DNA of 64,000 bases from the IMG/VR virus record IMGVR_UViG_3300018080_000160; one strand, given 5' to 3'. Positions 28,929 through 62,752 of the stretch are shown one piece after another (the stretch's first letter is position 1; every line of letters begins with the position of its first letter). A model generated the notes under the pieces. It saw only the letters and a list, made by a program, of their open reading frames with translations. It was not told the DNA's origin and did no database searches. Source of the DNA: an uncultured virus (IMG/VR IMGVR_UViG_3300018080_000160) (taxonomy: Duplodnaviria; Heunggongvirae; Uroviricota; Caudoviricetes). A program made the translations under genes and the position numbers.

Positions 28929-29021
28929 AAGCCAAAAACACCTCCCGGTGCGAGGAACCAAAGAACTTTTATTGACGGTTCGTGATATTGTCCATAGAAC
29001 TGACTACCAGATGGTATAGAT

Positions 29022-32776: not shown

Positions 32777-35700
32777 CTAATCCTTGGCGGTTTTCTTTGC
32801 ATCTTTCTTCTTAGATGCCTTCTTTTTCGCAGCCTTCTTCTTAGCTGCCTTCTTCTTAGCTGGTTTTGGTTTTGGAGGTTCCTTTTTTGGTTTTGGAGGT
32901 TCCTCTTTTTTGCCTCCAGTTAATTTTTCATATGTTCGTTGTAGAGCGGAGATCATACTCTGTGCGTCCTTCTTTTCTTTCGCGGTTGCTTCCGGGTCAT
33001 TTAATGTTTCGTTCCAATATTCTAAGTCATCCTCGATGTCTTCCGCTGTTTGTTCCTCGTCCTCATTAATGTCACCTTCTTTGAGATTGCCTGCACGACG
33101 TTCTAATTCCGCACCAATATCAGTAATAGCTTTGTTCTCCTCGTCGCTACGCTCAAGTAACTTCTTCCGTTTAAGTTCTTGGTTCATTTCCTCTAAATCT
33201 GAATCGCTAAAGTCTTTTATCGGCTTAGATTTTAATGCATCTGGAATGTTTTCGAGCATTCGTTGGTGAGCTTCAAGCTTCTCGTCCGCTTCTTCCTCTT
33301 CCATGGCATCTTTGAGCTTTCTTTCCAATGCGTTTCTTGACTTGGCAGTAGTCTTTATATCGTACTCTTCTTTCAAGATTTCTCGAATCTCATCATCAGA
33401 ATACTCTTTCATCTTCTTCTCGTGAGTTTCCCTCGCTTTTACCCTCTCTGCAGCAGAAGGCTCTTCCGGTTCTTCTGGTTTAGGAACTTCCTTCGGAGCT
33501 CTCTTCGGAGCTTTCTTAGGAGCTTTCTTGGGAGCTTTCTTGGGAGCTTTCTTGGGAGCTCTCTTCGGAGCTTTCTTAGGAGCTTTCTTAGGAGCTTTCT
33601 TGGGAGCTTTCTTGGGAGCTTTCTTGGGAGCTTTCTTGGCTGGGAGCTTGGTTTGCCCTTTCGGTGGTTTCTCTTCCTTCTTGGGGGCTTTAGTACCAAG
33701 TTTCTTTCCCAACATTCCTTCTACTTCCTTTAGTTTCTTCTGTAATGTCTCAGATTTCATCCGCTCGAAGTTACCACGCGGCTTCTTGACTCCTTTTGGA
33801 AGTTGACTAATCTTCTCCCGCAATGAAGCAGCAAGTTGCTGTTGTTGTTCTTTCTTCGAAATAGGCTTTCCTTCCAGCGTCTGCTGTGCTGGCGGTTTCT
33901 CTTCCTTCTCTCCAGAAACGAGATTGACCAAATCTGCTTTTCGTGTGACGTCTTTTGGAATGTCGATCTTGTTCTCATTTAGCCATTCCTTGATGGTAGA
34001 GACTGTCCAATCACGGGTATTCTCCGGTTTCTCGCCGGGGTATTTCGCTTCTTCCTCGGCAGCAGCTTCTTCAGTTGGCTCTGCACCTTTTTCTTCTGCC
34101 CATAGATCGGTTGGGAGACCTAACGATTCTCGCTCCTCTTTCCATTTTTCCATATCAAACCCGAGATTTTCTTCCGGATTGCTCAACAGCTTATCCATTT
34201 TACCGACATCTATTTTCTTGCCCTTGAAATCTTCGTAAGCTTTAGTTATGTCGAGGATATTCTGCTTCGGAAATTTCTTGCCACCTTTTTGTTCCGCTTG
34301 CAACTGGCGTTGCACGTATTTTGCAACCATCTCCTCGAACTTCATCCGAGATTGTTCGACATTCTTCGGGCCTTCAACTTTCTTGCGTCCTCTTTGTTTC
34401 GGTTTTCCTTCTCCGCGCATCTCTTCAGCTTCTTCCTCGGTAATCTCTTTCATTTCCATCGGAGTCTGGAATACCTTATCGAGCTTTAGATTTCCTTCTT
34501 CGTCGAAAACAGGATTGCCCTCGTCATCTCGTCTGACTGCTTTGCCAACCGGAACTTCGTACTCCTCTCCTCCTATCATTACTTTGTAAGGTTCAGGCTC
34601 CTCAGTCGTGTATAATTTGCCACCGCTTTCAACTTCTGCTTGAATGAGTTTTCCTTGCTCTGCTGCCTTCTGTAGGAGTTTCTGGATACTGGGCATCGTG
34701 TATTTCCCTTTTTCTCCTCGGACTTCCTTCCCACCTTCCATCTTCATACCCATCTGCTGTTCAACGACACCCTCAGCCAAATCACGAATCGAGTCACTAT
34801 GCGATGCAAACTCGTTTGCAACATTCGTAATCTCTTTCTCCATCATATCGTAAGCTTCTTGCACGTTCTCGAATTTTTCCTTCGTGCTTTCGACGAGACT
34901 ATTAATCTTCCCAGCAAGCTCATCGTCATACTCGATAACTACACCGGGACGAACAGTAGAGCTAAGCTCCGTGAACATTGCATCCATATCTTGACGGGCT
35001 TTGTCGATTATCTTACTGAAACCTGAAAGTCGATTATTGAGTCTGTCCATATTAAGTTCCATTTTATCCTGTGTCTTAACCGTCTCAACAAGCTGCTGGC
35101 CCACGCCAGTCATGTATTGGTCAAATTTTGATTGTATATTCTCTATCTGTGATTGATACTGCGAAGAAGCCCGTTCCGCGAGTGCTTTATGAGCTAACTC
35201 GCTTGTCCGTAACCGAGACACTTCTTCTTTTGCTCTCGATAACGCTTCAGCATATCTGAGTGCTGGGTGATTTTTAATATAGTCATTCCGAAGATCCTGC
35301 AAACCTGTAGGCGAAAATCTTCTATTTCTATTTAGATTTTTCTGCCACTTCTCGGTAAGCAAATCTATCATGTATTCCTGACGTTCGCTGAGTTTGTCCG
35401 GGTCTCCCTCGTATATCACATCAAACCCAACGAGTTTATTATTCTCGATGGTTGGAGTGAGAACTACCTTAGCCCCATCTACATTTATGACATACCATTC
35501 ATCACCAGAGCCAAGACGTTTGTAGATAGCAAACATACGAGCTTCTTTGGATAGGAGCGGCTTAGGAACAACTTTACCGTCTTTATTTAACCATTTAGTT
35601 CCTTTTCCATAAGTCCCCGGCTTTCTGGTAAGCCACTCACCGTTTTTCCCAATCGCAGTAACAGGTAAAGGTTTTAGATTAGCCTTAAATTTATCCCCAG

Positions 35701-36874
35701 AATATCTTAACTTACTTTTAGTTAATTTCCTATACGTGTGCTTTCGCAAAGCATCAATGTAATTTTTCCTCTTCTCGTGAGGTACATTCAACGCAACTTC
35801 CATCGCTGTATCGAGCGCGTTCTTCTGAGTTGCATCAAAACCGGGAGCGGACAAGATATCCAAAGATTTTACAAAATCTGTCTCTATCTTAGACATAGGC
35901 TTGTTCTTGTCAATATTTAACTCCTCAGCGGTGAGTTCACGAACTCTTGCAAGACGTTTGTGAGCTTGGGATAATCTTCTAACTACATCTTTAATTTTAG
36001 GCCGAAATGGCCTCTCATCAATGTTATTTTCACGCGCTAACTGTAGCTGTTCATCTATGACCTTCTTCACTTGGTCTTCATCCGGGAGTCTGTTCGCCGG
36101 GATACCTGAAGCAATTTCGTCATACTTCGCGTACCTATCGCGTTTGACTTTATCACTTTCCTCCATAAGCTCGGATAACGTGATATTAGCTATCGCACCT
36201 TCTAATCGTCTAATCTGCTCAAAACTACGAAGTGAGCGTTCGAACGCATTTTCTGCTTCTCTTTTTTGCTGTTCTCTCCTCTCCCTCTCGTACCTTTCAC
36301 GCTCTTTTATCATCCAGTCCGGTAACTCGGACATCTTGTGTGTGATAAGTCCAAGTCTATTGCGCAGTTTCTGCTCCTCTTTAGCTGCCTTATTGAAGGT
36401 ACTCTGGTCTATATTACCACGACTAAGCATTTTCTCTAAATGCGTTCGAGTTGCGAACGCTTTATCGATCTGCTCTTTTAGTTTTAGAGCTTTTTTCTTG
36501 AGTTTTGCGTTCCGTTCATTAATCTCCCGCATTTCCTTTATCTTACGCTTTTCGACAGCTTCTTGTATCTTTTGAACGGATTCTTCCGAATATATGGATG
36601 TAGGTTCTTCCTCTGGCTTCTTAGGTTTGCGGCCTTTCTTCTCCCACTTCCACAACCCCTTACCAACTTTAACCTTTACCCTATCCCCAACAACAATTCT
36701 CTTTCCTACTGGAGCTTCAGGCCGACCAACTTTCCCTTCTCCTTGCCCCGGAGGTGCGGGCATTGCTTGCCCACCTTTCGGGACGCGAAGGGCTGGCTCT
36801 CGTGGTTTTGCTGGGCCGGGAGGCTTCGTGGGCATATACTTGAGGATAATCTCCTCTAAATCTTTGGCCGCCAT
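32777..36874 (-). CDS. large charged coiled-coil protein with HeH/LEM-like motifs and histone-H1-like PKKA repeats
   Basis: 1365 aa; WTVSTIKEWLNENKIDIPKDVTRKADLVNLV; (APKK)n; AAKKK tail. Confidence 0.8.
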   Translation of the reverse strand: MAAKDLEEIILKYMPTKPPGPAKPREPALRVPKGGQAMPAPPGQGEGKVGRPEAPVGKRIVVGDRVKVKVGKGLWKWEKKGRKPKKPEEEPTSIYSEESVQKIQEAVEKRKIKEMREINERNAKLKKKALKLKEQIDKAFATRTHLEKMLSRGNIDQSTFNKAAKEEQKLRNRLGLITHKMSELPDWMIKERERYERERREQQKREAENAFERSLRSFEQIRRLEGAIANITLSELMEESDKVKRDRYAKYDEIASGIPANRLPDEDQVKKVIDEQLQLARENNIDERPFRPKIKDVVRRLSQAHKRLARVRELTAEELNIDKNKPMSKIETDFVKSLDILSAPGFDATQKNALDTAMEVALNVPHEKRKNYIDALRKHTYRKLTKSKLRYSGDKFKANLKPLPVTAIGKNGEWLTRKPGTYGKGTKWLNKDGKVVPKPLLSKEARMFAIYKRLGSGDEWYVINVDGAKVVLTPTIENNKLVGFDVIYEGDPDKLSERQEYMIDLLTEKWQKNLNRNRRFSPTGLQDLRNDYIKNHPALRYAEALSRAKEEVSRLRTSELAHKALAERASSQYQSQIENIQSKFDQYMTGVGQQLVETVKTQDKMELNMDRLNNRLSGFSKIIDKARQDMDAMFTELSSTVRPGVVIEYDDELAGKINSLVESTKEKFENVQEAYDMMEKEITNVANEFASHSDSIRDLAEGVVEQQMGMKMEGGKEVRGEKGKYTMPSIQKLLQKAAEQGKLIQAEVESGGKLYTTEEPEPYKVMIGGEEYEVPVGKAVRRDDEGNPVFDEEGNLKLDKVFQTPMEMKEITEEEAEEMRGEGKPKQRGRKKVEGPKNVEQSRMKFEEMVAKYVQRQLQAEQKGGKKFPKQNILDITKAYEDFKGKKIDVGKMDKLLSNPEENLGFDMEKWKEERESLGLPTDLWAEEKGAEPTEEAAAEEEAKYPGEKPENTRDWTVSTIKEWLNENKIDIPKDVTRKADLVNLVSGEKEEKPPAQQTLEGKPISKKEQQQQLAASLREKISQLPKGVKKPRGNFERMKSETLQKKLKEVEGMLGKKLGTKAPKKEEKPPKGQTKLPAKKAPKKAPKKAPKKAPKKAPKKAPKRAPKKAPKKAPKKAPKKAPKRAPKEVPKPEEPEEPSAAERVKARETHEKKMKEYSDDEIREILKEEYDIKTTAKSRNALERKLKDAMEEEEADEKLEAHQRMLENIPDALKSKPIKDFSDSDLEEMNQELKRKKLLERSDEENKAITDIGAELERRAGNLKEGDINEDEEQTAEDIEDDLEYWNETLNDPEATAKEKKDAQSMISALQRTYEKLTGGKKEEPPKPKKEPPKPKPAKKKAAKKKAAKKKASKKKDAKKTAKD
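33492..33640. repeat. 12-bp tandem repeat (about 12 copies) encoding APKK/APKR
   Basis: Unit CTTTCTTGGGAG with variants; 60-bp higher-order period. Confidence 0.95.
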
Positions 36875-45451: not shown

Positions 45452-45523
45452 TTATATAAATATGTTGTGTAATTGTTGTGGTGTCACATTTGTGACTCTC
45501 TTGTGTCACATTTGTGTCACATT
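45452..45523 (-). promoter_or_regulatory. TATA promoter with upstream TGTGACACA cluster 4
   Basis: Minus-strand TTTATATAA at ~45452-45460; motif copies at 45481, 45491, 45502, 45513. Confidence 0.7.
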
Positions 45524-46203: not shown

Positions 46204-46917
46204 TTAAGGTGAGGGTTTTTCCATCATAATCTTGCGCGGAATTCCATCAACCTTTTCCCCATTATCCCCAACAATCTCGATCTCACCACTTTCAAGAGAT
46301 TTTTGGACGTTAGCGACCTTTTCCGCGATCTCTTGCAAGCTCGGGATAGGTGACGTTCCAGCATGAATTTCGTTGTTGTGGCTTGTTGTGTTAACTGTAT
46401 TGATGGAAATGCGACGTGCATCCACATTTGGGCTGGAACCCTTAGATCGCGCCATGCGTCCGCAATGCTCGGAAAGAAGCTTGAGTAGCTTGTCCATCCG
46501 ACGCATGAGGAATTTCCTATACTCCACGTCGATAGCTCCTTCAAGCTCGTATTTGGTTAGATGGATTTGGGCTTTAATCTCTTGCCCAACGTCGATAGGC
46601 TCTTTGCTAAGCATGAATCGACGTATGGCGTCCAAATCATGCATGTGACGTTTGGCATGATTGGCGATAGATGTAGGATGGATTACTTCTCCCATCTCAG
46701 CCAAACGTATAGCTATTTCCTTTGGTTTCTTTTTTTGGACAATCATATTGTTGATTGTGGCTGCAAATTGGCTCACACAACATTTACATTGAGGATTGAA
46801 GACTTTGAGTATGCTATCAGGCACTACATCTACCGAATCAGATGCATCTTCCTCAGAATCTATCAAAGATTGTAATGGGCCTTCAGAATCGTTAGTTTTA
46901 TCTTTCACGTAGTTCAC
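46204..46917 (-). CDS. Zn-binding HTH protein, candidate terminase small subunit
   Basis: CKCC..I......KEIAIRL......SIANHAKRH followed by helical region; TerS role is inference. Confidence 0.5.
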   Translation of the reverse strand: MNYVKDKTNDSEGPLQSLIDSEEDASDSVDVVPDSILKVFNPQCKCCVSQFAATINNMIVQKKKPKEIAIRLAEMGEVIHPTSIANHAKRHMHDLDAIRRFMLSKEPIDVGQEIKAQIHLTKYELEGAIDVEYRKFLMRRMDKLLKLLSEHCGRMARSKGSSPNVDARRISINTVNTTSHNNEIHAGTSPIPSLQEIAEKVANVQKSLESGEIEIVGDNGEKVDGIPRKIMMEKPSP

Positions 46918-46940
46918 CAGATAAGGCTATGCGGCTTGCT

Positions 46941-46994
46941 AATATAAGTATTTTGTGACACATGAAAAATAGGTTGTGTTACAAATGTGTCACA
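46941..46994 (-). promoter_or_regulatory. TATA promoter with TGTGACACA cluster 5
   Basis: Minus-strand CTTATATT adjacent to motif at 46954; further copies at 46975 and 46986. Confidence 0.7.
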
Positions 46995-47181
46995 ACCTTC
47001 TTCCCATTTCACACCCTAAACAAATTCGTGAGAGATCCTACCAATTTGGCGATCTACCAACCCAATTTGCCGCCTAAACCAACGAAAAGTTTTAATTTGT
47101 CAAATTACTTGTCAATCCCAAGCCACTTTGTGACAATATGCGCCCAAAAACTGCCAAAGTCAATCAAACTTCCATCTACTC

Positions 47182-47325
47182 CCGTCTTAACCTATGTATG
47201 GTCAATCTAATGGTCAAGGCATACCTATATAGTATATAATAATAATAATAATAATAAATCTCTCTCTCTACACCCTATATAGCTAAGGCTTGACTACCAC
47301 ATTGACCACAATCAAGTTTAGACGG
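47182..47325. repeat. large imperfect inverted repeat around an AT-rich core (origin-like)
   Basis: TGGTCAATCTAATGGTCAAG vs CTTGACTACCACATTGACCA (16/20), outer CCGTCT/AGACGG, inner CTATATAG pair, (AAT)n(CT)n core. Confidence 0.7.
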
Positions 47326-47507
47326 TAAAATATGGCCACATCTAAGATTTGGGATGAAATACAGCCCAAATTTGCTTGTATCTCATCTCGAAATAACACA
47401 AAAATTCACGAAATAGCACAAATCAAGACGCATAACCACAAATTGACTTAGTATAACCCCGAATAGCCACAAAAATCTACCTATTAACCCCAAATGGAGA
47501 TTCAGAA

Positions 47508-47984
47508 ATGCTGGATGAAAACGAGTTAAAAACCCTAAAGGTCTTGAAAACTCGCACCAAAAACAACCCGCTTAGTGACCCATTGTTTAGGGCCACTGAT
47601 AAGTATATTCGGTCAACCCTATTAGAGGAACTTGAAAAACCGGAGAAAGAGGTAAAGGAGCTCGTAATACGTGCCTACCATAGGTATGTTTCAGATCCTA
47701 CTTGCATCCCACCAATAGTTAACACCCTTATTGATAATCCTCTACTCCAAGTTCAAGATACCTACGAAATCTTGGCCCAAATCCAAGATTCGGAGTCAAA
47801 TCTCGGTAAACACACGTCTATGGGCTTGCTCCACCTAACCAAAAAACTGATGAATTTCTTTAAACCTAAAATCCTCAAGGTTGACGTGTTTCTGATAGAC
47901 CTAATGCGCCAAGTTTACGGGAATAGGGCCGTCCTTAACGCAATATCGAATTTGAAGGCAAATCTAACTCAGAACAAAGATTAG
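47508..47984 (+). CDS. hypothetical helical protein
   Basis: 158 aa with GGAG SD, followed by U-tract. Confidence 0.7.
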   Translation: MLDENELKTLKVLKTRTKNNPLSDPLFRATDKYIRSTLLEELEKPEKEVKELVIRAYHRYVSDPTCIPPIVNTLIDNPLLQVQDTYEILAQIQDSESNLGKHTSMGLLHLTKKLMNFFKPKILKVDVFLIDLMRQVYGNRAVLNAISNLKANLTQNKD

Positions 47985-48152
47985 AGCCTTAGAACCGAGT
48001 ATCTCTAATCTCTCAATTCCTCTCTTTTTTTGTCCGAATCTCCCATTGGTCCTGCATAACTCCTTCTATCTCTCCAAATCTAAGTGTTGTAGCAGATTCG
48101 GAATAGATTTAGCCCAGAAAGGTGCTATACGAAAACCATTTCATTTTTAGAT

Positions 48153-48194
48153 AAAAAAAAGGGAGATCCCAAGGCCTAAGCCTTAGAATCTCCC
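48153..48194 (-). terminator. 15-bp hairpin plus U8 terminator ending the accessory array
   Basis: GGGAGATTCTAAGGC-TTAG-GCCTTGGGATCTCCC-TTTTTTTT (G.U pairs on the minus strand). Confidence 0.75.
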
Positions 48195-48199
48195 ATAGA

Positions 48200-48328
48200 T
48201 TAGGAGTTAAGTGGGATTATGATGAAGTCTTCATCCCAAATCTGGGTTTGGATGAATTCCTGCATTTCATCATAATCCTCGAAGACGTGGTAATCCCCGG
48301 ATGAATAGAGCTCAAGAGCATAAGGCAT
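48200..48328 (-). CDS. acidic micro-protein (42 aa)
   Basis: MPYALELYSSGDYHVFEDYDEMQEF... Confidence 0.55.
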   Translation of the reverse strand: MPYALELYSSGDYHVFEDYDEMQEFIQTQIWDEDFIIIPLNS

Positions 48329-48329
48329 G

Positions 48330-48626
48330 TTAATCCACTATCCGCCATTTCTTCCCGTTTAGGTCTTCCCCTTCATAGACTGCAAGAGGTTTCCTATTCC
48401 GTTCATCAGGTAAATCGGAAGGCTCATCAAAGCAATTAAACTCAGATTCAATTTCCTCAAGTTCACGATCTGATATTTCCTCAATTTCAGGAAATATTTC
48501 CTCAAGTTCTTCACCCAAATCTTGAAATGCGTCAAGCATTGAATCGCAAGAGCCACAATCGAAGGATTTTGCAATAGACTCGATTAATGCTTCCACCTTA
48601 TTCAAAGGGATTTTTCCTTTCACCAT
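48330..48626 (-). CDS. acidic hypothetical protein
   Basis: 98 aa, GGTGA SD. Confidence 0.7.
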   Translation of the reverse strand: MVKGKIPLNKVEALIESIAKSFDCGSCDSMLDAFQDLGEELEEIFPEIEEISDRELEEIESEFNCFDEPSDLPDERNRKPLAVYEGEDLNGKKWRIVD

Positions 48627-48844
48627 TATATTTCACCTTTCTCTTGCTGAAGGATCTCGCGTAATTGGGCGATCTCCTCCGCGATCTCTTCCATAGAAGC
48701 AAGGATTTGGTCACAATCCTCAGCTCGAACCCGGCAAAATTGTGTTTCTTTCCGGAAAAACGACATTTCCCAGAAAAAATTAGAGATTTTGTCCAAAATG
48801 GTGCTTTGGACGATCTCGAAAGATTTACTTGCCATCTCGGTCAA
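48626..48844 (-). CDS. hypothetical protein
   Basis: Coupled to neighbours. Confidence 0.6.
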   Translation of the reverse strand: MTEMASKSFEIVQSTILDKISNFFWEMSFFRKETQFCRVRAEDCDQILASMEEIAEEIAQLREILQQEKGEI

Positions 48845-49181
48845 TCTCCTCGCTTTGTTCGTCGAACCAATCGGGGATTTCGGATGTAATCCGTTCCTTG
48901 CCTATGATCTCGGTATAATCCCCAGATTGAAGTTTGGCTTCTACTTTCTGCCAAATCTCTTCGTGGGAGCAGGCAGTTACTCGAATCTGCCTATATACCT
49001 TGGCTACTACAAAGACGTCAAGCTCCTTGCTTTCGCCGTTTTTTTGACCGGGGGTTTCGTTGTTTGGCCCAACCCGATTATTCTCCTCTTCCGGGGTAGG
49101 CTCTTCTTCAGCCAATTGGCTGAAATACTTCCTAATGGCTTCCATAACAGCCATAATGGAAGGTTTCTTTTCCTTTGCCAT
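48825..49181 (-). CDS. acidic hypothetical protein
   Basis: Start MAKEKK with AGGAG SD. Confidence 0.7.
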   Translation of the reverse strand: MAKEKKPSIMAVMEAIRKYFSQLAEEEPTPEEENNRVGPNNETPGQKNGESKELDVFVVAKVYRQIRVTACSHEEIWQKVEAKLQSGDYTEIIGKERITSEIPDWFDEQSEEIDRDGK

Positions 49182-49215
49182 TTTTGTTTCTCCTTTTAGA
49201 TTTGTGCCCAATGAA

Positions 49216-49260
49216 GGGCTTTGGTTATCGTACTAAGCCCTTTCTCTATTGAAAGAGAAA
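49216..49260 (-). promoter_or_regulatory. structured intergenic element A
   Basis: TCTCT-TTCAAT-AGAGA then GGGCTT-AGTACGATAACCA-AAGCCC. Confidence 0.7.
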
Positions 49261-49300
49261 AAAAGGAGAGAAAAGAGATTGTTGGTTATTTTCCCCTAAT

Positions 49301-49474
49301 CTACTTCCATGAAAGGGGATTGATGAGATCGTAAAGCTCATCAATGATTGAGTAGCCTTCTTCTTCCAGATCGCCGATCTCAAAGTTTAGAGATCGGACG
49401 TCCAAGAGAAACATTTTGGCTTCAACGTGGCTCAATTTAATTTTTACTGATTTCTTCTTCATTTTTACCTTCAT
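49301..49474 (-). CDS. small hypothetical protein
   Basis: Start MKVKMK with GGTGA SD. Confidence 0.6.
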   Translation of the reverse strand: MKVKMKKKSVKIKLSHVEAKMFLLDVRSLNFEIGDLEEEGYSIIDELYDLINPLSWK

Positions 49475-49497
49475 TCTATTCACCTTTTCACCCAACT

Positions 49498-49543
49498 TTC
49501 GGGTTTGGTTTATGTATTAACCCGAATTCCGATTTGCACGGAA
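49498..49543 (-). promoter_or_regulatory. structured intergenic element B
   Basis: TTCCG-TGCAAAT-CGGAA then TTCGGGTT-AATACATAAACCA-AACCCGAA. Confidence 0.7.
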
Positions 49544-49601
49544 AATAAAAGAGAAAAAGGGGTGTTTGCTTCAGAACCAACAAATATTCCAAATCTCTCG
49601 G

Positions 49602-49754
49602 TTATGCGTCTAAACCGATAGATTCTTCCAGAATCTCATAAAAATCCAAGAGATTCTCCAAATATCTGTTGTGGACTTCCCAGCTCGCGTTTAAATCCAC
49701 AACATTAAGGATCTCTTGGAAGAGATCGTAACAATCTTTTTTATGCTTGTCCAT
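49602..49754 (-). CDS. micro-protein (50 aa)
   Basis: MDKHKKDCYDLFQEIL...GLDA*, AGGTGAG SD. Confidence 0.6.
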   Translation of the reverse strand: MDKHKKDCYDLFQEILNVVDLNASWEVHNRYLENLLDFYEILEESIGLDA

Positions 49755-49775
49755 CTAATTCTCACCTTAGATTTG

Positions 49776-49810
49776 CGCCCAAGGAAGGATTTGAGCCTTC
49801 TACTCGGACA
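49776..49810 (-). ncRNA. tRNA minihelix-like element (acceptor stem plus T arm)
   Basis: GTCCGAG-TA-GAAGG-CTCAAAT-CCTTC-CTTGGGC-G. Confidence 0.55.
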
Positions 49811-49842
49811 TAGTTAGATTTTGGTTAAAAAAAAGGGAGAGA

Positions 49843-50004
49843 TTAAAGTTTAGGGACATCTATTTCGGGGAAATTTTCGAGGAAAAGATCCCGAATTTCC
49901 TTCACTTTCCACCCAATCTTTTCATCCTCTTGGGTGTATTTGACCAATAGGGCTATGGCATTGCCCATAATGGTCGTAGCTCGTTGTATTCCTTCTATAT
50001 TCAT
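49843..50004 (-). CDS. micro-protein (53 aa)
   Basis: ATGA overlap; MNIEGIQRATTIMG...VPKL*. Confidence 0.55.
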   Translation of the reverse strand: MNIEGIQRATTIMGNAIALLVKYTQEDEKIGWKVKEIRDLFLENFPEIDVPKL

Positions 50005-50156
50005 TTTTCTTCATCTCTTTTTGTTTCTTTAGGTTTATTCTCGCTAAAAACCGTCGAAAAGGCTATCCATTGCCGGAATGAAGAGATTTGCTCGTTATCG
50101 CAAATCTCCTCAACCAGAAATGCGGGGAGATGGAAATTTTTGGTCGTTATTGGCAT
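50001..50156 (-). CDS. micro-protein (51 aa)
   Basis: AAGGAG SD; MPITTKNFHLPAF...DEEK*. Confidence 0.55.
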   Translation of the reverse strand: MPITTKNFHLPAFLVEEICDNEQISSFRQWIAFSTVFSENKPKETKRDEEK

Positions 50157-50311
50157 TTTGGTTTCTCCTTTGATAGATTTAGTTTTACTTCTTCTCGGAA
50201 GGGCCTAAGCCTTGCACGGAAAGGCGATATGCCAAATTCCTTAGTGCGCTTAGATTTGAAACCAAACTTGCTGAATCTAATACATACAACGAGAAAAAAG
50301 AAAAAAAAGAG

Positions 50312-50617
50312 TTAAAATGTAGTTTTACACTTGAAATAGTGTTTAAACGAATCCATGGGCATCAAAAATCTACCTTTGTGGCCCATTATCAATCCCCGTC
50401 TAACTATTGCGCGGGGAGGATTCGTATTAGGCTCTTTCAAGTGGAAAACGAGTATGGCTTTGTGGATATTACCGGAAAGCTGATCTGGTGTTTTCCCGAG
50501 ATTTGTAACTTGTCCGGTAAAAATATAGCAAGGTAGATCGGGTTTTCGCCCAATCCTCTTGCGGTATTCCCTCAGATCGTCGTGTAGTTTGAAGATCCCG
50601 TACATTGTGAAGCTCAT
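50312..50617 (-). CDS. hypothetical protein
   Basis: 101 aa, ATGA overlap with the vWA gene. Confidence 0.65.
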   Translation of the reverse strand: MSFTMYGIFKLHDDLREYRKRIGRKPDLPCYIFTGQVTNLGKTPDQLSGNIHKAILVFHLKEPNTNPPRAIVRRGLIMGHKGRFLMPMDSFKHYFKCKTTF

Positions 50618-52863
50618 TTCAAAGCTTCCGCCTTGTACCTATCAATAGCTCGCGCGATAAGCTTTTTCAGCTCATTAGTGACCCGATCTATCGACGTACT
50701 AACCTTCTCGTCTTTCCGGAAGAAGTTTCCGGTAAATCCGTTAAGGTCAAAGCCTTCAACCCCAACCAAATAGGGTTTTATAGGCTCACGTCGGAGATCA
50801 TTCATTATCGCACCAGATACTGTTGGATCTTGGTCTGCTGATTCCCCATCGGTTATTACGAAGAGCAGCCGGAGTTTCTCGGGACGTTTGCGCAGCTCGT
50901 TAACAACATGAGCCATAGCAGGCCACATAACGGTTCCACCAGATGTTAATCTGATAAAGGTATGGCGGAATGTATGGAAGGGTTCCTCAAAGCCTTTAAC
51001 CCGATAGAACAGATTCTCAAAGTTCCACATCCCAAATGGGATATTGGCTTTAGCAAGGGCACCTGCGATAACTCCGGCAAATTTCTCGCATGAATCTGTA
51101 TCCATGCTTCCGGAAACATCCGTTAACAACCCAACAGATAGATTTAATCTGCCGGATTTCGCCAATTGTTTCCCACTAAAGAGCTTGGTGGTGCTTGGGT
51201 TACTCTTGGCTTTCAACAGGCGTCGCATGTTGAGCTTTCCCGAGTTTTTTCTCCGGAGTCTTTCAGTCCCTTCACCAAGTTTTCTGTTGAAGAAATTCCC
51301 CAGATCCTCACTTTCTTTATCTATGTGAAGATCCCGTAGTCTTTGGCGCAATTCGGGGGAGTCTTCCCGTAATTGGGGAGTTCTACGCATGCTTCCCGAA
51401 CCAGAACCCGCACCCGCTCCCATAACTTGCCCTTTATTGCAGAGCTTCTTCAAATCTTGCTTAAGCTCTTGCAATTGGCCCTTGGTGAGTTTTTGGAGCA
51501 TCTCATTGTCACCAGCTTGTTCTTTCTGCTGGTTTATGAGCTTTCTTCTATTAATCCGCTTTACCTTGGGGGTTTTAGGCTTTCCATCCTTAGATTTGCC
51601 CCCTTTAGGCTTCCCGTCTTTGGGCTTTTTGGGATCTTTAGGATCTCCATTCCCTTTCCCGTTTTTGGGCTTTCCGGGGCCTTTGGGATCTTTACAATCT
51701 CCTTTAGGCTTCCCGTCTTTGGGCTTTCCGGGATGATCTTGCGGGTTACCGGGTTGATCTCCTTGATCTTGTGGGTTACCGGGTTGATCTCCTTGGGGGT
51801 TCCTTGGTGGTCCTGCTGGATCTCCCCCCTTAGGTGGGTCGGAAGGTGGATTCGACGGTCCTGATGGCCCCCTTGGGGGTTCCGGCTCAAGAGATTCCCC
51901 GGATTCGAGGAATTCTCTCAAGTAGGTCAAGCAATGTTCCGCATGCTCTACGATATCTGACATATTCGCGCCTTTCTTCATTAGATTTTTGCGCAAATAA
52001 TTTCCGGCATGGAGAATCTCCCGAATCGCTCGCTGGGAGAGCTGCTCTTCCAAAGGTTTGTCAAACATGATTCCTCCGGAGAGAGTCTGTTGTAACCAGC
52101 TCTCCCAGACCTTTTCCTCAAGATCGTCGATCTGGTCGATTTTTGGACGCTCAAGTAAATAACCTTTGTCCACGTCCTCGAACCGAGTAATGTAACCCGG
52201 CGAATCTTGATCTCCGAGGAAATTGGTTAATACATCGGATGCCAAATTCAATCCTAATGCAGCTTTCTCGGGGATCGTCGGGAATTTCCGCTGAATCTTA
52301 GCCATTTCTTCCAGATCAGCGGTTCCGTAAAGCACATGGTCTATCTCATGCTTGAAGATCCGTTCTATCCGATCTATGAGCAAACCGGGATTACTCCCGT
52401 AGATTCGTGCTTTTGTATCTACCGAGATCACGATTTGGTCGTTGTTGGTCGCCGAAAGCCCATTCCCGTTCTGGAATTTAACGGGAATCTTTGGGGCGTT
52501 ATACTTCTTCTTCCAAAATTCGAATAACTCAAGCACATCGAATTCTGGAAGTTTACGTTCCGCTAAACCGCCGTGTTTGGCGATTACGTCACGTACAATG
52601 TCCCAAGGGACGTTTCGGTATAATGCCTTCTTTGGCTTCTTCACCCATGTTGAATAGGGTTGAAGCAAAATCTCCTTCCGGCTCACGTTTCGTATTTCCA
52701 GCTCTTCCCATGGCCCTCTAAAATTCTGCGGCCTGCAAGCCGCATAGTCACCCACTTTGACCCGGAACATGAACCCGTCGTTACATTCGACGGATTTTAG
52801 TGGATCTCCGTAGGAATTCCTTGGAAGGCCCATAACAAGAGCTGAAAGCTCTTTTTTATTCAT
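50614..52863 (-). CDS. vWA-domain protein with HExxH metallopeptidase-like region and P/G/K-rich linker
   Basis: HEIDH; MIDAS DVSGS...GGT...ITDG; QGDQPGNPQD and KPKDGKPKG repeats. Confidence 0.9.
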   Translation of the reverse strand: MNKKELSALVMGLPRNSYGDPLKSVECNDGFMFRVKVGDYAACRPQNFRGPWEELEIRNVSRKEILLQPYSTWVKKPKKALYRNVPWDIVRDVIAKHGGLAERKLPEFDVLELFEFWKKKYNAPKIPVKFQNGNGLSATNNDQIVISVDTKARIYGSNPGLLIDRIERIFKHEIDHVLYGTADLEEMAKIQRKFPTIPEKAALGLNLASDVLTNFLGDQDSPGYITRFEDVDKGYLLERPKIDQIDDLEEKVWESWLQQTLSGGIMFDKPLEEQLSQRAIREILHAGNYLRKNLMKKGANMSDIVEHAEHCLTYLREFLESGESLEPEPPRGPSGPSNPPSDPPKGGDPAGPPRNPQGDQPGNPQDQGDQPGNPQDHPGKPKDGKPKGDCKDPKGPGKPKNGKGNGDPKDPKKPKDGKPKGGKSKDGKPKTPKVKRINRRKLINQQKEQAGDNEMLQKLTKGQLQELKQDLKKLCNKGQVMGAGAGSGSGSMRRTPQLREDSPELRQRLRDLHIDKESEDLGNFFNRKLGEGTERLRRKNSGKLNMRRLLKAKSNPSTTKLFSGKQLAKSGRLNLSVGLLTDVSGSMDTDSCEKFAGVIAGALAKANIPFGMWNFENLFYRVKGFEEPFHTFRHTFIRLTSGGTVMWPAMAHVVNELRKRPEKLRLLFVITDGESADQDPTVSGAIMNDLRREPIKPYLVGVEGFDLNGFTGNFFRKDEKVSTSIDRVTNELKKLIARAIDRYKAEALK

Positions 52864-52889
52864 AGCTTTCTTCTCCTTATTGGTTTTTT

Positions 52890-52955
52890 GCGTCTCATGG
52901 AGATTTAAACCCCATTAGCCACTTATCAGGCTTCTCCTTTGCGGAGTAGAGACGT
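52890..52955 (-). ncRNA. degenerate tRNA-like cloverleaf in the 5' leader of the vWA gene
   Basis: CGTCTC-TA-CTCC-GCAAA-GGAG-A-AGCC-TGATAAGT-GGCT-A-ATGGGG-TTTAAAT-CTCCAT-GAGACG-C. Confidence 0.65.
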
Positions 52956-53010
52956 TGGTTAAAAATAAGAGAGAAAAAGAGTTTTTGAATCCAAGAGCTA
53001 ATCTCGGATT

Positions 53011-53160
53011 CTAATGGCTAAAAGCCATATCTACATCATTCCTTTCTGCCAAAATGTTGTAGACTTCCTTGGCTTTCGCCCAATCGCTTTCATCTTGCGA
53101 AAGCTCAAAGGCCATAGCCATACCGATTAGATCGGCTGAATCTCTATCTTCATAGTTCAT
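53011..53160 (-). CDS. acidic micro-protein (49 aa)
   Basis: AAGGAG SD; MNYEDRDSADLIG...AFSH*. Confidence 0.6.
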   Translation of the reverse strand: MNYEDRDSADLIGMAMAFELSQDESDWAKAKEVYNILAERNDVDMAFSH

Positions 53161-53191
53161 TTTGCTTTTCTCCTTTGTTATTCACCCAAAT

Positions 53192-53236
53192 TTCGGGTTT
53201 GGTTTAGATTTGAACCCGAATCTCTATTGAAAGAGA
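53192..53236 (-). promoter_or_regulatory. structured intergenic element C
   Basis: TCTCT-TTCAAT-AGAGA then TTCGGGTT-CAAATCTAAACCA-AACCCGAA. Confidence 0.7.
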
Positions 53237-53263
53237 AAAAAGGAGAGAAAAAGACTTTGGTGC

Positions 53264-53482
53264 TTAGAAAACGATAGGATCTCGAAATTTTAGAGCATCT
53301 TGAACGTTACGTTCACATGCCCATGTAAAATCAGTATATTCATCCCACTTGATGAAAGTGGTCACGTACTGATTCGAGATGGTAAATCCATCCCGATTTA
53401 CAGTTACTTTCATCCCATCTCTAAGTTCAACGTACACTTCCCCAAATTCAATCTCTAGCTTGAAGTATTTTTTATTTTCCAT
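53264..53482 (-). CDS. small hypothetical protein
   Basis: Start MENKKY with GGGTGA SD. Confidence 0.6.
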   Translation of the reverse strand: MENKKYFKLEIEFGEVYVELRDGMKVTVNRDGFTISNQYVTTFIKWDEYTDFTWACERNVQDALKFRDPIVF

Positions 53483-53501
53483 AGTATTTTCACCCATATT
53501 A

Positions 53502-53545
53502 GGGCTTTGGTTTATGTGCTAAGCCCATTTCGGATTTGAACCGAA
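53502..53545 (-). promoter_or_regulatory. structured intergenic element D
   Basis: TTCGG-TTCAAAT-CCGAA then GGGCTT-AGCACATAAACCA-AAGCCC. Confidence 0.7.
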
Positions 53546-53581
53546 AAAATAAAAAGAAAAAAGGGTGTGTGAGCTTTAGGC

Positions 53582-55402
53582 TCACTTTTCGCTGATCTCG
53601 ATAAGGGGGGAGTTAATTACATCCCCATCCTCTTTTCGCTCGGAAATAACGAGCTGGTTAATTTCCTGCTCGTAACAATCAGGCGAGAAGAATCTCTCGA
53701 AAAATTCCTTTACATGTTTCGAGATTAGGGACATCTCCTCACTATCATGCTCGGATGTTCGATTCTGGGCAAACGTGGTGACGTTTTTGTCCACAAGGTC
53801 ACCCAATTTGAACTTCCATCTCTTACCGAGAATATCCCATGCGAGCTCGCCTAATTGACGCATGCACGGGATTGAAGCTTTGGTTGTGCTTTCCGGAAGC
53901 TTAGCCCATACTTCTCGGAAGGCTGAAGCCAAAGCCCACGCACCACGTTCACTGAATCCCAGCTCTCGGTTATTTCTGAGAGAGATTTTGAACTTGGCAC
54001 GTAGGTAGTCTGCGATCTGGTCCTGAGTCGGGATTGGGAAACGAATCCATCTCCAGCGAGTAGCGACCGAATCAGATGGATCTACACCAAGAGGTAGACC
54101 ATCCGGGTTAAGTGAAGAGAGAATTATCGCGGATTCGACGGGAGAAACCACTTTTCGGTTCCAAACTTCCGGTTTATACGTGCCTTCCATTAGTTCTTTA
54201 ACCGTTGGTTTCTCTTTCAACCAAAGGGTGAGCTCTTGGAAGATCGTATTAAGAGCCTTCAAACTATCGTCGATCTCCTTAATTTCCTCAATCTGCAAGA
54301 GAGTTAACCCTTGAGTCGCGGCTAAATGGACAAATTGGGCTATATCTCCCGCTAATTTGATGGTCGCATTGTTTCGGAAGCCGTCGCTCACCTGAAAGTC
54401 CATTGCTTCATCAGACCTTGAGGGAGCAATGGTAAAGGCGTCTTTCCCCGGAGTTAATCCCAGAATCTTCATTAACACTTCCCCAAGGAAAGATTTACCG
54501 GTTCCCGGCTCCCCGGCAAGCATTATGCATGCTGGGATGCCACGATTCATTCGTTCTGCAATGGCTTTGATTGTTTCTTTGCCCTTGCCCATGTAGTCTT
54601 TGAATCCGTACGACCAGAGGTCGGAAGTGAATTGAGCATCCAGAATTTCCGCTGAATCATATACAGCGGTAAACTCCTTCTCCGATTCGGCCACCATAAA
54701 GCATGCGTCGACGTATCTGTATGCTTCAAGGTAATTCCCGAGAGATAGCGATCTAAGGGTCGCCTGCAAGATCGGATTGTTAGTTTCATCCAATTGGGCG
54801 ATCTCTTCAATCTCCTCGATGGTTCCGGGGATGTCGCTTAATGCCTGCATAAGGGAATAATTTCCGTCTTTCATCTCTTCCCTTTTTTTGGCCTTTTTCT
54901 CCCGTTCCTCAGCTTCTTTCTCAAGGCGCAAAGCTTCCTCAGATTGGAAGTTTGCCCATTTCTGATTGATCTCCTCGAACTTCCTTTGTTTCTGGGCGAT
55001 TTGCTCCTTGGAAAGCTTCCCACCAAACTTCTCTTGGAGAGAAAGCATAGCCTTGGTGTATTCCTCAAGGCTTGTTATAGATAGCTCGTTAGTTTTCTCG
55101 GAATTAGGGCTTTCGGGTTCCTTGGTGGTCGTTTTCTCGGGATTGAGGAAATATACGGAAGATCCATGCTTTCCCTCTTTCAAGACCAATTCTTTGGCTC
55201 TAAGTCCGTTTAGGGCATTGGAGATGTTGTAATTCTCCACGTCAGCCCTATCGAACCCAGTTTTTCCCCAATGCTTGTCAAAATCGCGGATTTCGTCTTG
55301 AATATCCGCCCATGGTGATCTCGGATGAGATCGTAAAAAATCCATGGCGATTTTGGTAGCTACGTCTTTCAGGGATGGTTGTTTGTTGTTTGTATCTGCC
55401 AT
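53582..55402 (-). CDS. MoxR/dynein-like AAA+ ATPase with extended N-terminus
   Basis: MLAGEPGTGKS; Walker B LLQIEEI; SSLNP; TRW arginine finger; near the vWA gene. Confidence 0.85.
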   Translation of the reverse strand: MADTNNKQPSLKDVATKIAMDFLRSHPRSPWADIQDEIRDFDKHWGKTGFDRADVENYNISNALNGLRAKELVLKEGKHGSSVYFLNPEKTTTKEPESPNSEKTNELSITSLEEYTKAMLSLQEKFGGKLSKEQIAQKQRKFEEINQKWANFQSEEALRLEKEAEEREKKAKKREEMKDGNYSLMQALSDIPGTIEEIEEIAQLDETNNPILQATLRSLSLGNYLEAYRYVDACFMVAESEKEFTAVYDSAEILDAQFTSDLWSYGFKDYMGKGKETIKAIAERMNRGIPACIMLAGEPGTGKSFLGEVLMKILGLTPGKDAFTIAPSRSDEAMDFQVSDGFRNNATIKLAGDIAQFVHLAATQGLTLLQIEEIKEIDDSLKALNTIFQELTLWLKEKPTVKELMEGTYKPEVWNRKVVSPVESAIILSSLNPDGLPLGVDPSDSVATRWRWIRFPIPTQDQIADYLRAKFKISLRNNRELGFSERGAWALASAFREVWAKLPESTTKASIPCMRQLGELAWDILGKRWKFKLGDLVDKNVTTFAQNRTSEHDSEEMSLISKHVKEFFERFFSPDCYEQEINQLVISERKEDGDVINSPLIEISEK

Positions 55403-55510
55403 TTTTGTTCACCCGCTAACGGGGTTGATGGTTAGAGCATTATTTCTTTGCTCTTCTCTTCCCTTTCTCATTTGAGAAAGAAGAGAGAAGAAAAAAGAAA
55501 AAAGAAAATA

Positions 55511-55849
55511 TTACTGGTAGAGCCTTTTTAGAGCGATCTCCCACGCCTGCCCTTCTTCCCCGGCTCGCGGAGGAACATGCTTGGGCATATCAATCAGTTC
55601 CGAGCTTGGTTCATAATCCTCAACAATCTCAGTGAGATTGTCAATCATTTCAACAAGCTCCGGCTCGATATTGTGTAACCCATGCCCAGATTCTGCTTCA
55701 ACCAAAATCCGAGCGATCTCCAGCTCGTGGGAAGCCTCTAAGAGGGCTTCCAAGACGACCCGTCTTAGACGCAAGACGGGAGCATTCTCAATGGTACAAT
55801 TCTTCACTAACAGCTCATTAATGCTGTTTTCGTTGTTGTTTTCTGCCAT
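55511..55849 (-). CDS. acidic hypothetical protein, first gene of the accessory array
   Basis: 112 aa; shares GAACAAAAATGGCAGA start context with the AAA gene. Confidence 0.7.
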   Translation of the reverse strand: MAENNNENSINELLVKNCTIENAPVLRLRRVVLEALLEASHELEIARILVEAESGHGLHNIEPELVEMIDNLTEIVEDYEPSSELIDMPKHVPPRAGEEGQAWEIALKRLYQ

Positions 55850-56889: not shown

Positions 56890-57369
56890 AAACATCTTCG
56901 GAGCTCATTATTCTGCAGAATAGATTCATCAGTTATGCCTCCCGGCAAGCGTAGTTAATTTAATCTTTGTGTGCCGCACGGAAAAAATGAAACATCTTCG
57001 GAGCTCTCGTCTCGGTTTTTGGCAGACAGTTGCCCCAATAGGAGGTAAAAATCGATCTCTGTTATATGCCGTTTTTCGGCGAGATAGCAGACGACAAAAT
57101 CGAAACATCTTCGGAGCTATTTTTCTGAACATTGTTTTAATCTTTGAGCGTATCTATGTTCAGTTTGCACCAGTAAAGAATGGGCCAAATGAACATTGTT
57201 TAGGATGAAAGAAAAAAGAGATAGGAGCCAAAGAGTTAGCGAGGTTTGGGGGTGACCGAAACGGGCACGGGAGGGTATATACAAAGGAGAAACTTTGCAA
57301 AATGTGAAGGGGGGAGGTAGAAATAATCCCGCTTACACCCTGTCCAATCGACAAACATCTTCGGAGCTC
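56890..57369 (+). repeat. four direct repeats AAACATCTTCGGAGCT
   Basis: Copies at 56890, 56990, 57103, 57353; a 15-bp copy also at 61303. Confidence 0.9.
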
Positions 57370-62707: not shown

Positions 62708-62752
62708 TGTGTCACAACCGTGTGTCACATTTGTGACACAAAAGGTTTTAAT
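62708..62752. promoter_or_regulatory. TGTGACACA cluster 6 with BRE/TATA-like element
   Basis: TGTGTCACA at 62708; inverted repeat TGTGTCACA-TT-TGTGACACA at 62721-62740; then AAAGG-TTTTAAT. Confidence 0.75.

Follow-up and report, generated by a model that had tools for sequence, protein, structure and literature searches.

In T4-type phages, the elements called PeSLs run from a stop codon in an AT-rich region through a sigma-70 promoter and a stem-loop to a Shine-Dalgarno sequence and a start codon. As described by Arbiol et al. (2010; PMC2839356) and Comeau et al. (2014; PMC4122927), the stem-loop often lies between or over the promoter boxes, the cassettes mostly stand ahead of ORFans, and promoter activity, terminator activity and recombination between cassettes have all been demonstrated. 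In the haloarchaeal myovirus HGTV-1, a TATA-like box and an inverted repeat precede most open reading frames (ORFs) of one genome arm (Sencilo et al., 2013, as described in PMC3950731), and according to that description its authors compared the motif with PeSLs. Here we describe four minus-strand hairpins, A to D, in 64,000 nucleotides (nt) of an uncultured virus of the Caudoviricetes (IMG/VR record IMGVR_UViG_3300018080_000160; this whole stretch is called the window below). With a probability of roughly 55%, we read them as the central module of a repeated, modular terminator-promoter-leader cassette that resembles PeSLs and the HGTV-1 motif and is carried by what is probably an archaeal orphan virus.

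Each of the four hairpins is the second of two in its cassette and is referred to as HP2.

49242-49214, minus strand: HP2 of cassette A, 8-bp stem AAGGGCTT/AAGCCCTT with the 13-nt loop AGTACGATAACCA
49526-49498, minus strand: HP2 of cassette B, 8-bp stem TTCGGGTT/AACCCGAA with the 13-nt loop AATACATAAACCA
53220-53192, minus strand: HP2 of cassette C, 8-bp stem TTCGGGTT/AACCCGAA with the 13-nt loop CAAATCTAAACCA
53526-53502, minus strand: HP2 of cassette D, 6-bp stem GGGCTT/AAGCCC with the 13-nt loop AGCACATAAACCA

These hairpins had been proposed from the letters alone (hereafter the sequence-only reading), and both a reading of the strand and an exhaustive hairpin scan recovered them in their places. 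The loop is 13 nt long and ends in AACCA in all four copies, as had been claimed; the 6-bp core given for the stem of A is correct, and the full stem extends it to 8 bp. Neither the 3' half of the loop nor the closing UU/AA varies among the copies, and all 30 pairs are Watson-Crick, with no G.U. A search for CCCA-N5-SGGSTT-TGGTT-N8-AASCCS with at most two mismatches, a pattern that covers the stem class, loop length, AACCA and downstream TGGG, matched the window four times, at A to D, and gave no match in 100 dinucleotide-preserving shuffles. A covariance model built from the four copies found no fifth strong copy in the 64 kb (next best E 0.058). The Rfam 15 scan of the window at gathering thresholds returned tRNA only, and a permissive scan of 48000-55700 gave no match on any of the four hairpins.

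Conservation of the stems by two-sided changes, another claim of the sequence-only reading, was upheld. Between the A/D and B/C classes, both partners have changed in four of the eight stem pairs, and 93.8% of cells are paired, a level reached in 7 of 500 shuffles; slid controls stayed at or below 69%. There are only two stem classes and hence at most two independent covariation events. The HP2 repeat is real, non-random and structured, and because its pairing is kept by two-sided changes, the structure itself has probably been under selection.

HP2 proved to be the middle module of a longer unit, a context that the sequence-only reading had missed: a gap-free cassette of about 75 nt, in which HP2 is accompanied by a T tract resembling a terminator and by another covarying hairpin (HP1) whose loop is TATA-like. 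The four copies align without gaps over about 85 columns. From 5' to 3' on the minus strand, the order is upstream stop codon, pyrimidine/T tract, HP1, HP2, TGGG, Shine-Dalgarno sequence and start codon, and all four cassettes are intergenic, each lying between a stop codon and the Shine-Dalgarno sequence and ATG of a small gene.

49251-49278, minus strand: pyrimidine tract of cassette A, 28 nt with T7, 23 nt past the stop codon of the upstream gene, read as a terminator
49547-49562, minus strand: pyrimidine tract of cassette B, 16 nt with T5, followed by A and TTTTCC
53229-53254, minus strand: pyrimidine tract of cassette C, 26 nt with T5 and T6, 10 nt past the upstream stop codon
53551-53565, minus strand: pyrimidine tract of cassette D, 15 nt with T6 and T5, followed by A and T6
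49243-49258, minus strand: HP1 of cassette A, TCTCT/TTCAAT/AGAGA
49527-49543, minus strand: HP1 of cassette B, TTCCG/TGCAAAT/CGGAA
53221-53236, minus strand: HP1 of cassette C, TCTCT/TTCAAT/AGAGA
53528-53546, minus strand: HP1 of cassette D, TTTCGG/TTCAAAT/CCGAAA
49207-49210, minus strand: invariant TGGG of cassette A, in the context TTGGGCAC, 12 nt past AACCA
49487-49494, minus strand: TGGGTGAA box of cassette B
53181-53188, minus strand: TGGGTGAA box of cassette C
53489-53496, minus strand: TGGGTGAA box of cassette D, overlapped by the first ATG

The tracts are pure pyrimidine over 15-28 nt and contain runs of T5-T7; a small hairpin over the upstream stop codon precedes tract D. Invariant blocks of the alignment are T25-T28 with C29, AAT36-38, AACCAAA60-66 and TGGG76-79, the last of which starts four bases past HP2 and takes the TGGGTGAA form in B to D. 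The RNAalifold consensus fold contains both HP1 and HP2, with 5 of 13 pairs kept through two-sided change. HP1 of A can be extended to 10 pairs with G.U (49238-49263) and then competes with HP2. Placed in this context, the hairpins belong with composite promoter/stem-loop cassettes rather than with riboswitch-like elements.

Two further hairpins of the HP1 type lie in neighbouring intergenic DNA.

49784-49800, minus strand: GAAGG/CTCAAAT/CCTTC, in a neighbouring intergenic region
52897-52915, minus strand: ATGGGG/TTTAAAT/CTCCAT with one G.U, upstream of the gene for a 749-aa protein

The first has no HP2 and is followed directly by CTTGGGCGCAAATCTAA, a downstream block that it has in common with cassette A; the second has an AACCA about 25 nt downstream of its loop center. 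The minus strand of the window carries 12 hairpins whose loop is NNNAAAT or TTCAAT, against 3.2 +/- 1.8 in 200 block shuffles, and 6 of the 12 fall in the intergenic regions of a single 4.4-kb stretch (49.2-53.6 kb), where they carry five different stems. G.U pairs in these hairpins occur in the sense strand only (one in the 52915 hairpin and three in the extended HP1 of A).

A separate motif also touches the cassettes. (C)CAAATCTAA, whose reverse complement reads TAnnTTTG, is the commonest 8-9-mer of the window, with 20 minus-strand and 11 plus-strand copies of AAATCTAA. It is enriched in non-coding DNA at 45.9-48.2 kb and 56.2-56.8 kb on both strands, with other copies at 49203, 49774, 50257 and 53211, and is found in the loop of hairpin C and also, in cassette A and a neighbouring region, immediately 5' of the Shine-Dalgarno sequence. 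The best match of the HP2 covariance model outside the family (E 0.058, opposite strand) is a perfect 8-bp plus-strand hairpin, AATCTTGG/CCCAAAT/CCAAGATT, at 47768-47806, within the plus-strand gene 47508-47984 or at its end.

Identity counts for each module confirmed that the flanks are mosaic, as the sequence-only reading had it. The block of the upstream hairpin matches at 17 of 18 positions between A and C and at 14 of 18 between B and D, whereas the HP2 arms match at 14 of 16 between A and D and at 16 of 16 between B and C. The loops of B and D agree at 11 of 13 positions, yet their arms agree at only 10 of 16, with both arms different. Since HP1 and the loop are common to B and D and both arms differ, the arms have been altered together within otherwise alike cassettes. 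Recombination alone would need a breakpoint on either side of each arm, so it is simpler to suppose that the two arms changed in concert. Modules and genes would be reshuffled whenever such cassettes recombined, as has been suggested for PeSLs, where the marks of recombination are mosaic cassettes, indels between close relatives and mini-circles.

Mosaicism is also what would be expected if the pairing had no function and the elements were simply repeated promoter or terminator DNA, with perfect arms generated by recombination between cassettes or by template-switch correction of quasi-palindromes. The double changes, which are of the transversion type only, and the perfection of all the stems fit that explanation, as do the PeSL crossovers described as mapping within stem-loops (PMC2839356). 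We nevertheless consider it very unlikely, given that two hairpin families are held in register, that six HP1 hairpins with five stems keep the same loop type, that the 13-nt loop is exact in four of four copies, and that an analogous stem-loop is kept in more than 12 HGTV-1 cassettes with sense-strand G.U pairs.

From this anatomy we infer terminator and promoter functions, such that the cassette would make each small ORFan gene of an accessory or early region an expression unit of its own. Past the upstream stop codon, the T tract would act as an oligo-T terminator of the archaeal type, which needs no hairpin, and would bring transcription of the upstream gene to an end. Oligo-T stretches cause archaeal polymerases to terminate, and the terminators of Sulfolobus/SSV1 are described as TTTTTYT. 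Ten of the 16 minus-strand pyrimidine tracts in the window (at least 13 nt long, with T5) sit 0-40 nt past the stop codon of a minus-strand ORF, and each of three plus-strand genes that close a plus-strand unit has a pyrimidine tract after it. These tracts have no preceding terminator hairpin, except at the following site, which is the sole classical terminator-like site on the minus strand in the scanned 48000-55700.

48153-48194, minus strand: hairpin of 15 pairs and then T8, closing the small-gene cluster

Downstream of the tract, the HP1 loop (6-7 nt; TTCAAT, TGCAAAT or TTCAAAT) would serve as a TATA-like box. Counted from the last A of AACCA, this A/T-rich box lies at -32 to -26 in A to D, AACCA being 26-29 nt downstream of the center of the HP1 loop, a distance at which initiation by an archaeal RNA polymerase would be expected; upstream of the 749-aa gene, TTTAAAT lies at -28 to -22 from AACCA. 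Elsewhere in the window, TATA-like octamers are centered 25-28 nt upstream of the start codons of the terminase gene and of a 634-aa gene. The spacing of the HP1 loop therefore equals the TATA-to-start distance of the window's leaderless-looking genes, which suggests a start at or near AACCA. With transcription beginning there, the HP2 palindrome would span about -20 to +9 and bracket the initiation region. TGGG(TGAA), 12 nt past AACCA, would complete the cassette together with the Shine-Dalgarno sequence and start codon that follow.

We favor action of HP2 at the RNA level. The hairpin would most likely form in RNA that carries both arms, from upstream read-through or from transcripts begun in the T tract, where it would insulate or attenuate and would keep the CCC of the 3' arm from pairing with the downstream GGG. 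The G.U wobbles of the minus strand, together with a predicted stability of HP2 as RNA of -7.9 to -9.9 kcal/mol, speak for action on the sense-strand transcript, and it would probably be costly for duplex DNA to extrude stems of 6-8 bp that carry 13-nt loops.

Several points weigh against the cassette reading, or against parts of it. The sample is small, with four copies and two stem classes. The compensatory changes in HP2 are all transversions (G-C to C-G, A-T to T-A) without G.U intermediates, and an all-transversion, all-Watson-Crick pattern also fits upkeep of a palindrome at the DNA level. The promoter assignment is ambiguous, as three A/T-rich segments could be the TATA box and predict three different starts: besides the HP1 loop, the end of the T tract could be the box, which would place the start at the 5' arm of HP2 (its GGG) or in its loop and would give D a 5'-terminal hairpin, and ATAAAC in the HP2 loop could be the box, with a start just past TGGGTGAA. 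TTCAAAT and TGCAAAT are poorer boxes than TTTTTATA, TTTTAATA and TTAAATATA elsewhere in the window, and they have no purine-rich flank resembling a B recognition element (BRE). RNA-level action is itself made less certain by the position of the hairpins, which lie past the presumed terminator and may straddle the start site; with a start at AACCA, a gene's own mRNA would have no 5' arm, and HP2 would then form only in RNA that reads through the supposed terminator. The nearest clusters of the virus's clamp loader by language-model features are clamp loaders of tailed phages. Finally, the HP2 element is absent from a related IMG/VR genome with 32% terminase identity (best E of the hairpin model 4.5).

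The host is quite probably archaeal, as suggested by genes resembling RFC and Hef, T-tract gene ends, TATA-like boxes and no excess of sigma-70-like sites. The window comes from a sediment metagenome and represents a tailed virus, with a terminase, a Mu-F-like protein, a protein resembling major capsid protein E, baseplate J and a tRNA-Ile. Its clamp loader resembles the small subunit of RFC and scores 5e-54 against the archaeal equivalog and 3.7e-28 against bacterial DnaX, and 4e-33 against archaeal and human (eukaryal) RFC and 4.6e-16 against T4 gp44; by structure, the clusters nearest to it in the language model are archaeal RFCs. A Hef/ERCC4-like nuclease is also encoded. A consensus scan of the minus strand found sigma-70-like sites at none of the four elements and seven in 7.7 kb, against 10.4 +/- 3.4 in shuffles.

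That scan bears directly on whether the elements are true bacterial PeSLs, with a bacterial host, a sigma-70-type promoter and hairpins that act as intrinsic terminators or attenuators. Boxes of that type can be read by eye in all four copies (TTCAAA, TGCAAA or TTTCAA, then 18 nt, then CATAAA, TCTAAA or CGATAA), the genes of the window have strong Shine-Dalgarno sequences, and the clamp loader is tailed-phage-like by features. The would-be -10 boxes lack the final T, however, and neither hairpin is followed by a U run, a T run preceding both instead; the replication genes are nearest to archaeal RFC and Hef. A bacterial intrinsic terminator has a G+C-rich hairpin with a short loop and a U run immediately after it; no such site was found at A to D on the minus strand, where the loops are 13 nt, and the sole match on an element was a plus-strand reading of C with the tail TCTCTATTGA. 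We regard this explanation as extremely unlikely.

A protein-binding site in duplex DNA would account for the palindromes in another way, with a dimeric viral or host regulator bound to the inverted repeat around the initiation region and repressing or timing the small genes. Archaeal repressors usually bind around the initiation region (about -20 to +9), and with a start at AACCA the palindrome would cover about that span. The arms pair perfectly by Watson-Crick rules without G.U, their spacing is fixed at 13 bp, and elsewhere in the window other palindromic boxes, of the TGTGACAC type, lie in the interval from a TATA-like box to a start codon. One protein would be expected to keep its half-site, whereas here both half-sites change jointly (GGGCTT/AAGCCC versus CGGGTT/AACCCG) and the distance from GGG to CCC is 19 bp in one stem class and 17 bp in the other; moreover, the neighbouring HP1 palindromes have five unrelated arm sequences. 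The joint change of the arms, the 2-bp shift and the five HP1 stems around one loop type are arguments for a structure rather than a duplex protein site, and no DNA-binding domain was found among the small proteins of the cluster. An operator of this kind is decidedly unlikely.

The TGTGACAC/GTGTCACA boxes, which are often paired, lie between the TATA-like boxes and start codons of several genes (62708-62740, 46950-46998, 45480-45520, 28906-28960 and about 1040-1118) and look like operator sites of one regulator. Boxes of the TGTGACAC form are also present, with an (ATT)n microsatellite near 47240-47260, in the roughly 600 nt of non-coding DNA (46918-47507) between the divergent plus-strand gene 47508-47984 and minus-strand gene 46204-46917, a layout that resembles a regulatory or lysogeny-type switch region.

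The same perfect stems would suit a hairpin promoter in single-stranded or cruciform DNA, in the manner of the early promoters of phage N4, with the 13-nt loop presenting the region to be melted. With a start at the last A of AACCA, positions -12 to +1 would fall in the loop, which would match an open complex roughly in extent and position; the stems pair perfectly whichever strand is read, and the predicted stability of HP2 as single-stranded DNA is -4.0 to -6.5 kcal/mol. Hairpins with 13-nt loops on stems of 6-8 bp are ill suited to extrusion from duplex DNA, and the N4 promoters, whose loops are 3 nt, depend on a virion RNA polymerase. The 64 kb yielded no RNA polymerase gene, about 15 kb of the 78,956-bp source contig lying outside the window; no family of that kind was found in the 74 ORFs scanned with Pfam, nor in a 1365-aa protein that was considered as a candidate virion RNA polymerase and found no support. 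A DNA hairpin promoter is barely credible here.

We return to RNA with the alternative stem. The sequence-only reading had proposed that the CCC of the 3' arm can pair instead with a downstream GGG, and this complementarity is present and energetically competitive, although it shows no covariation in a common register. The alternative stem reaches 6 bp in B and C (ACCCGA/UUGGGU) and has a predicted energy of -5.8 to -8.2 kcal/mol, so that HP2 is the stronger by 1.2-3.2 kcal/mol. Closing-pair probabilities of HP2 are 0.46-0.83 in local ensembles. In folds of 100-130 nt, HP2 is part of the minimum free energy (MFE) structure for B and D, appears only in the centroid for C and is absent for A, and the CCC/GGG stem shows up in some MFE folds. 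Long-range pairing of the pyrimidine tract with purine-rich Shine-Dalgarno sequences was also considered and set aside; it occurs in several MFE folds, is indistinguishable from generic complementarity and becomes moot if the tract terminates transcription.

These energetics are the main attraction of an RNA operator or two-state leader switch, in which the 5' UTR would contain the entire hairpin and a protein bound to the AACCA loop, or a physical signal, would shift the balance between HP2 and the CCC/GGG stem over GGGTGA and so set translation. The small energy gap, the intermediate closing-pair probabilities and the invariance of the 3' loop half and closing UU/AA agree with such a switch, and GGGTGA lies 6-7 nt 5' of ATG in D and ahead of a 606-aa gene. 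GGGTGA is a plausible ribosome-binding site only in D, however, where that box is 7 nt upstream of the second ATG; B and C have a second Shine-Dalgarno sequence nearer the ATG, and the Shine-Dalgarno sequences of B, C and A (AAGGTGA or AAGGAG) lie further downstream, outside the alternative stem. HP2 is placed 20-40 nt past runs of T5-T8 and among TATA-like boxes, so that much of the mRNA may have no 5' arm, and the element has no Rfam family match. The alternative stem lacks both covariation and a common register, and we consider the reading as a protein-bound operator or regulated switch unlikely. Overall, the interpretation given in the sequence-only reading is partly supported.

A variant of the cassette reading links the two folds to the start site. 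An RNA that starts at AACCA could form only the CCC/GGG stem and not HP2, so RNA from the cassette's own promoter would fold that stem over GGGTGA, and read-through RNA would form HP2 and leave the box free. The palindrome would then bracket 13 nt around the start (about -12 to +1), with two translational states set by transcript origin, and opening of the promoter might in addition be aided or gated by the hairpin or by its DNA counterpart. We consider this arrangement quite improbable, both for the fold being set by the start site and for the bracketing with two translational states. We have not met a start-site-dependent leader of such a kind for archaeal viruses in the literature, in which no search was aimed at it.

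Other structured elements were considered for the cassette and rejected. A tRNA-like element is suggested by HP1 of D, which has a perfect T-arm-like UUCAAAU loop, and by the HP2 loop, which ends in ACCA, but there is no acceptor-like helix, the remaining HP1 loops deviate from a T-loop, and ARAGORN and Rfam yield only the true tRNA-Ile. Sites like integron attC do not fit in arm order and size, as judged by eye. The tRNA-Ile (GAT) at 25434-25508 on the minus strand scores 57.9 bits against the Rfam tRNA model and has an encoded CCA, followed by ACCAAAAAC.

Relatives of the locus were sought at several levels. Searching 49000-54000 with blastn against 50,697 phage records, HGTV-1 included, gave no match, and the 749-aa and 606-aa neighbour proteins found only themselves among 5.8 billion clusters. 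No related loci were found in IMG/VR through the 749-aa protein or the terminase. In the same database, the B/C-type hairpin pattern gave no match, and the pattern from the loop to TGGGTGA gave six, none with the hairpin. The full element pattern was matched 0 times in IMG/VR, 3 times in JGI metagenomes and 8 times in GTDB genomes; by eye, none of the 11 matches has the T tract or the cassette flank, and 6 of them have one repeated sequence in common. The closest terminase homologues are 66% identical, the maximum, on an 85-kb ENA contig and 55% identical on a 3-kb JGI contig. By these comparisons the virus appears to be an orphan. No RNA run is listed as containing the stretch, and the one DNA run listed may be its source.

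The IMG/VR relative used for comparison above is a complete genome of 83,186 bp and has no obvious repeated hairpin cassette. Past a gene end it does contain the 16-mer TCTCCTTTTTTTCTCT (minus strand, 26766 and 31465), identical to part of the tract of cassette A (49251-49278), and there TCTCCTTTTTTTCTCT is followed by a TTTAAATA box and a leader with a Shine-Dalgarno sequence. The common TCTCCTTTTTTTCTCT suggests a shared, host-specific terminator/promoter style.

The genes that follow the cassettes are small and unrelated to one another (best E 0.72), and neither a Pfam nor a PHROG family was found for any of the four.

48825-49181, minus strand: gene after cassette A, 118 aa from ATG, with an in-frame TTG at 49211; no family found
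49301-49474, minus strand: gene after cassette B, 57 aa; no family found
53011-53160, minus strand: gene after cassette C, 49 aa; no family found
53264-53497, minus strand: gene after cassette D, 77 aa; no family found

Between the two pairs of cassettes lies the 749-aa ORFan (50614-52863, minus strand). Its middle is a long low-complexity stretch rich in Pro, Gly and Lys, and inspection by eye shows a DxSxS motif (DVSGSMD) that resembles the metal-ion-dependent adhesion site (MIDAS) of von Willebrand A domains; the protein has no Pfam, PHROG or NCBIfam match. The 1365-aa ORF (32777-36874) has no detectable family and contains, at 33499-33636 on the minus strand, about 12 copies of a 12-nt coding tandem repeat, AAGAAAGCTCCC, of the Lys-Lys-Ala-Pro type. 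The AAGAAAGCTCC repeat was considered as a promoter and rejected, since it is a coding tandem repeat. The 15-mer AGCTCCGAAGATGTT (GCTCCGAAGATGTT core) has five minus-strand copies, four irregularly spaced at 56904-57367, within 1.5 kb of non-coding DNA (55.85-57.37 kb), and one at 61316 in an AAA-ATPase gene; these could be iterons, an origin or another class of promoter.

The comparison with PeSLs, as those are described, is close in organization. Both kinds of cassette have a T- or AT-rich stretch, a stem-loop within or over a putative promoter and a Shine-Dalgarno sequence, and both precede small ORFans in a plastic region, with differing stems and mosaic or recombinant modules. The present cassettes have no sigma-70 -35/-10 pair, which in PeSLs is near the TTGACA-N17-TATAAT consensus, and probably an archaeal host, they have two hairpins instead of one, and the 13-nt loop has a fixed 3' half. 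Because the T run lies 5' of the hairpins, they cannot act as bacterial intrinsic terminators, unlike PeSLs. There are four full copies here, against about 50 PeSLs in phi1 and RB49, and the function shown by experiment for PeSLs is putative for the present cassettes.

In the HGTV-1 genome (KC292026), we found more than 20 minus-strand genes at 128-143 kb preceded by CCTTTTTATA, a CTCCTCGTGGCACGAGGAG-type hairpin, TATATAAA, CTTAATAC and ATG, and 8 of 13 CTCCTCGTGGCACGAGGAG (CTCCTC-type) hairpins carry sense-strand G.U. In both viruses, a repeated cassette stands before small ORFs of a tailed virus, with an archaeal host for HGTV-1 and probably for the present virus as well. A T-rich or TATA-like box is followed within about 10 nt by a hairpin (7-9 bp in HGTV-1) and by more A/T boxes before the ATG; by our own count, the hairpin loop is about 26 nt downstream of the first T-rich box, and pairing is kept in variant copies. 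There is no sequence likeness, the motif cores differing throughout by eye. HGTV-1 loops are 3-7 nt, against 13 nt here; the TATA boxes of HGTV-1 are canonical and its genes apparently leaderless, whereas the present boxes are weaker and the cassettes end in a Shine-Dalgarno sequence; and HGTV-1 has one hairpin in more than 20 copies, against two hairpins in four copies. With PeSLs and the HGTV-1 motif alike, the present cassettes have in common a layout of a T-rich box, a hairpin with its loop about 26 nt further on and additional boxes, but no sequence.

Two further systems are more distant. Lambda-type nut boxB has a 5-bp stem and a 5-nt loop beside boxA, and each phage has one or two such sites, which follow a promoter. 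The lambda boxB and HK022 put antitermination RNAs are similar in being small hairpins with a fixed loop and covarying stems before early-region terminators; unlike them, the present cassettes precede each gene, and neither a boxA-like element, an N-like protein nor a match in Rfam was found for them. N4 hairpin promoters combine a 5-7 bp stem and a 3-nt loop with a giant, phage-encoded virion RNA polymerase. They too place a DNA hairpin a few bases 5' of the start and keep the geometry fixed while the stems vary, but the loop here is 13 nt, and no virion RNA polymerase was detected in the window.

To our knowledge, hardly anything has been learned about how archaeal viruses signal the control of their genes except in a few cultured systems, and a cassette of about 75 nt is a compact object on which to test the interplay of a T-tract terminator, a TATA-like box and a start-site hairpin in archaeal transcription. 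Even if the elements are merely repeated promoter DNA, they are a useful annotation that marks independent transcription units in an orphan genome. By analogy, we file the cassettes as probably working like PeSLs and the HGTV-1 motif while being members of neither family. If this is correct, selected stem-loop terminator-promoter cassettes occur in T4-like phages, in a haloarchaeal myovirus and in an unrelated uncultured sediment virus, and would represent a convergent route by which tailed viruses plug in, insulate and shuffle small accessory genes.

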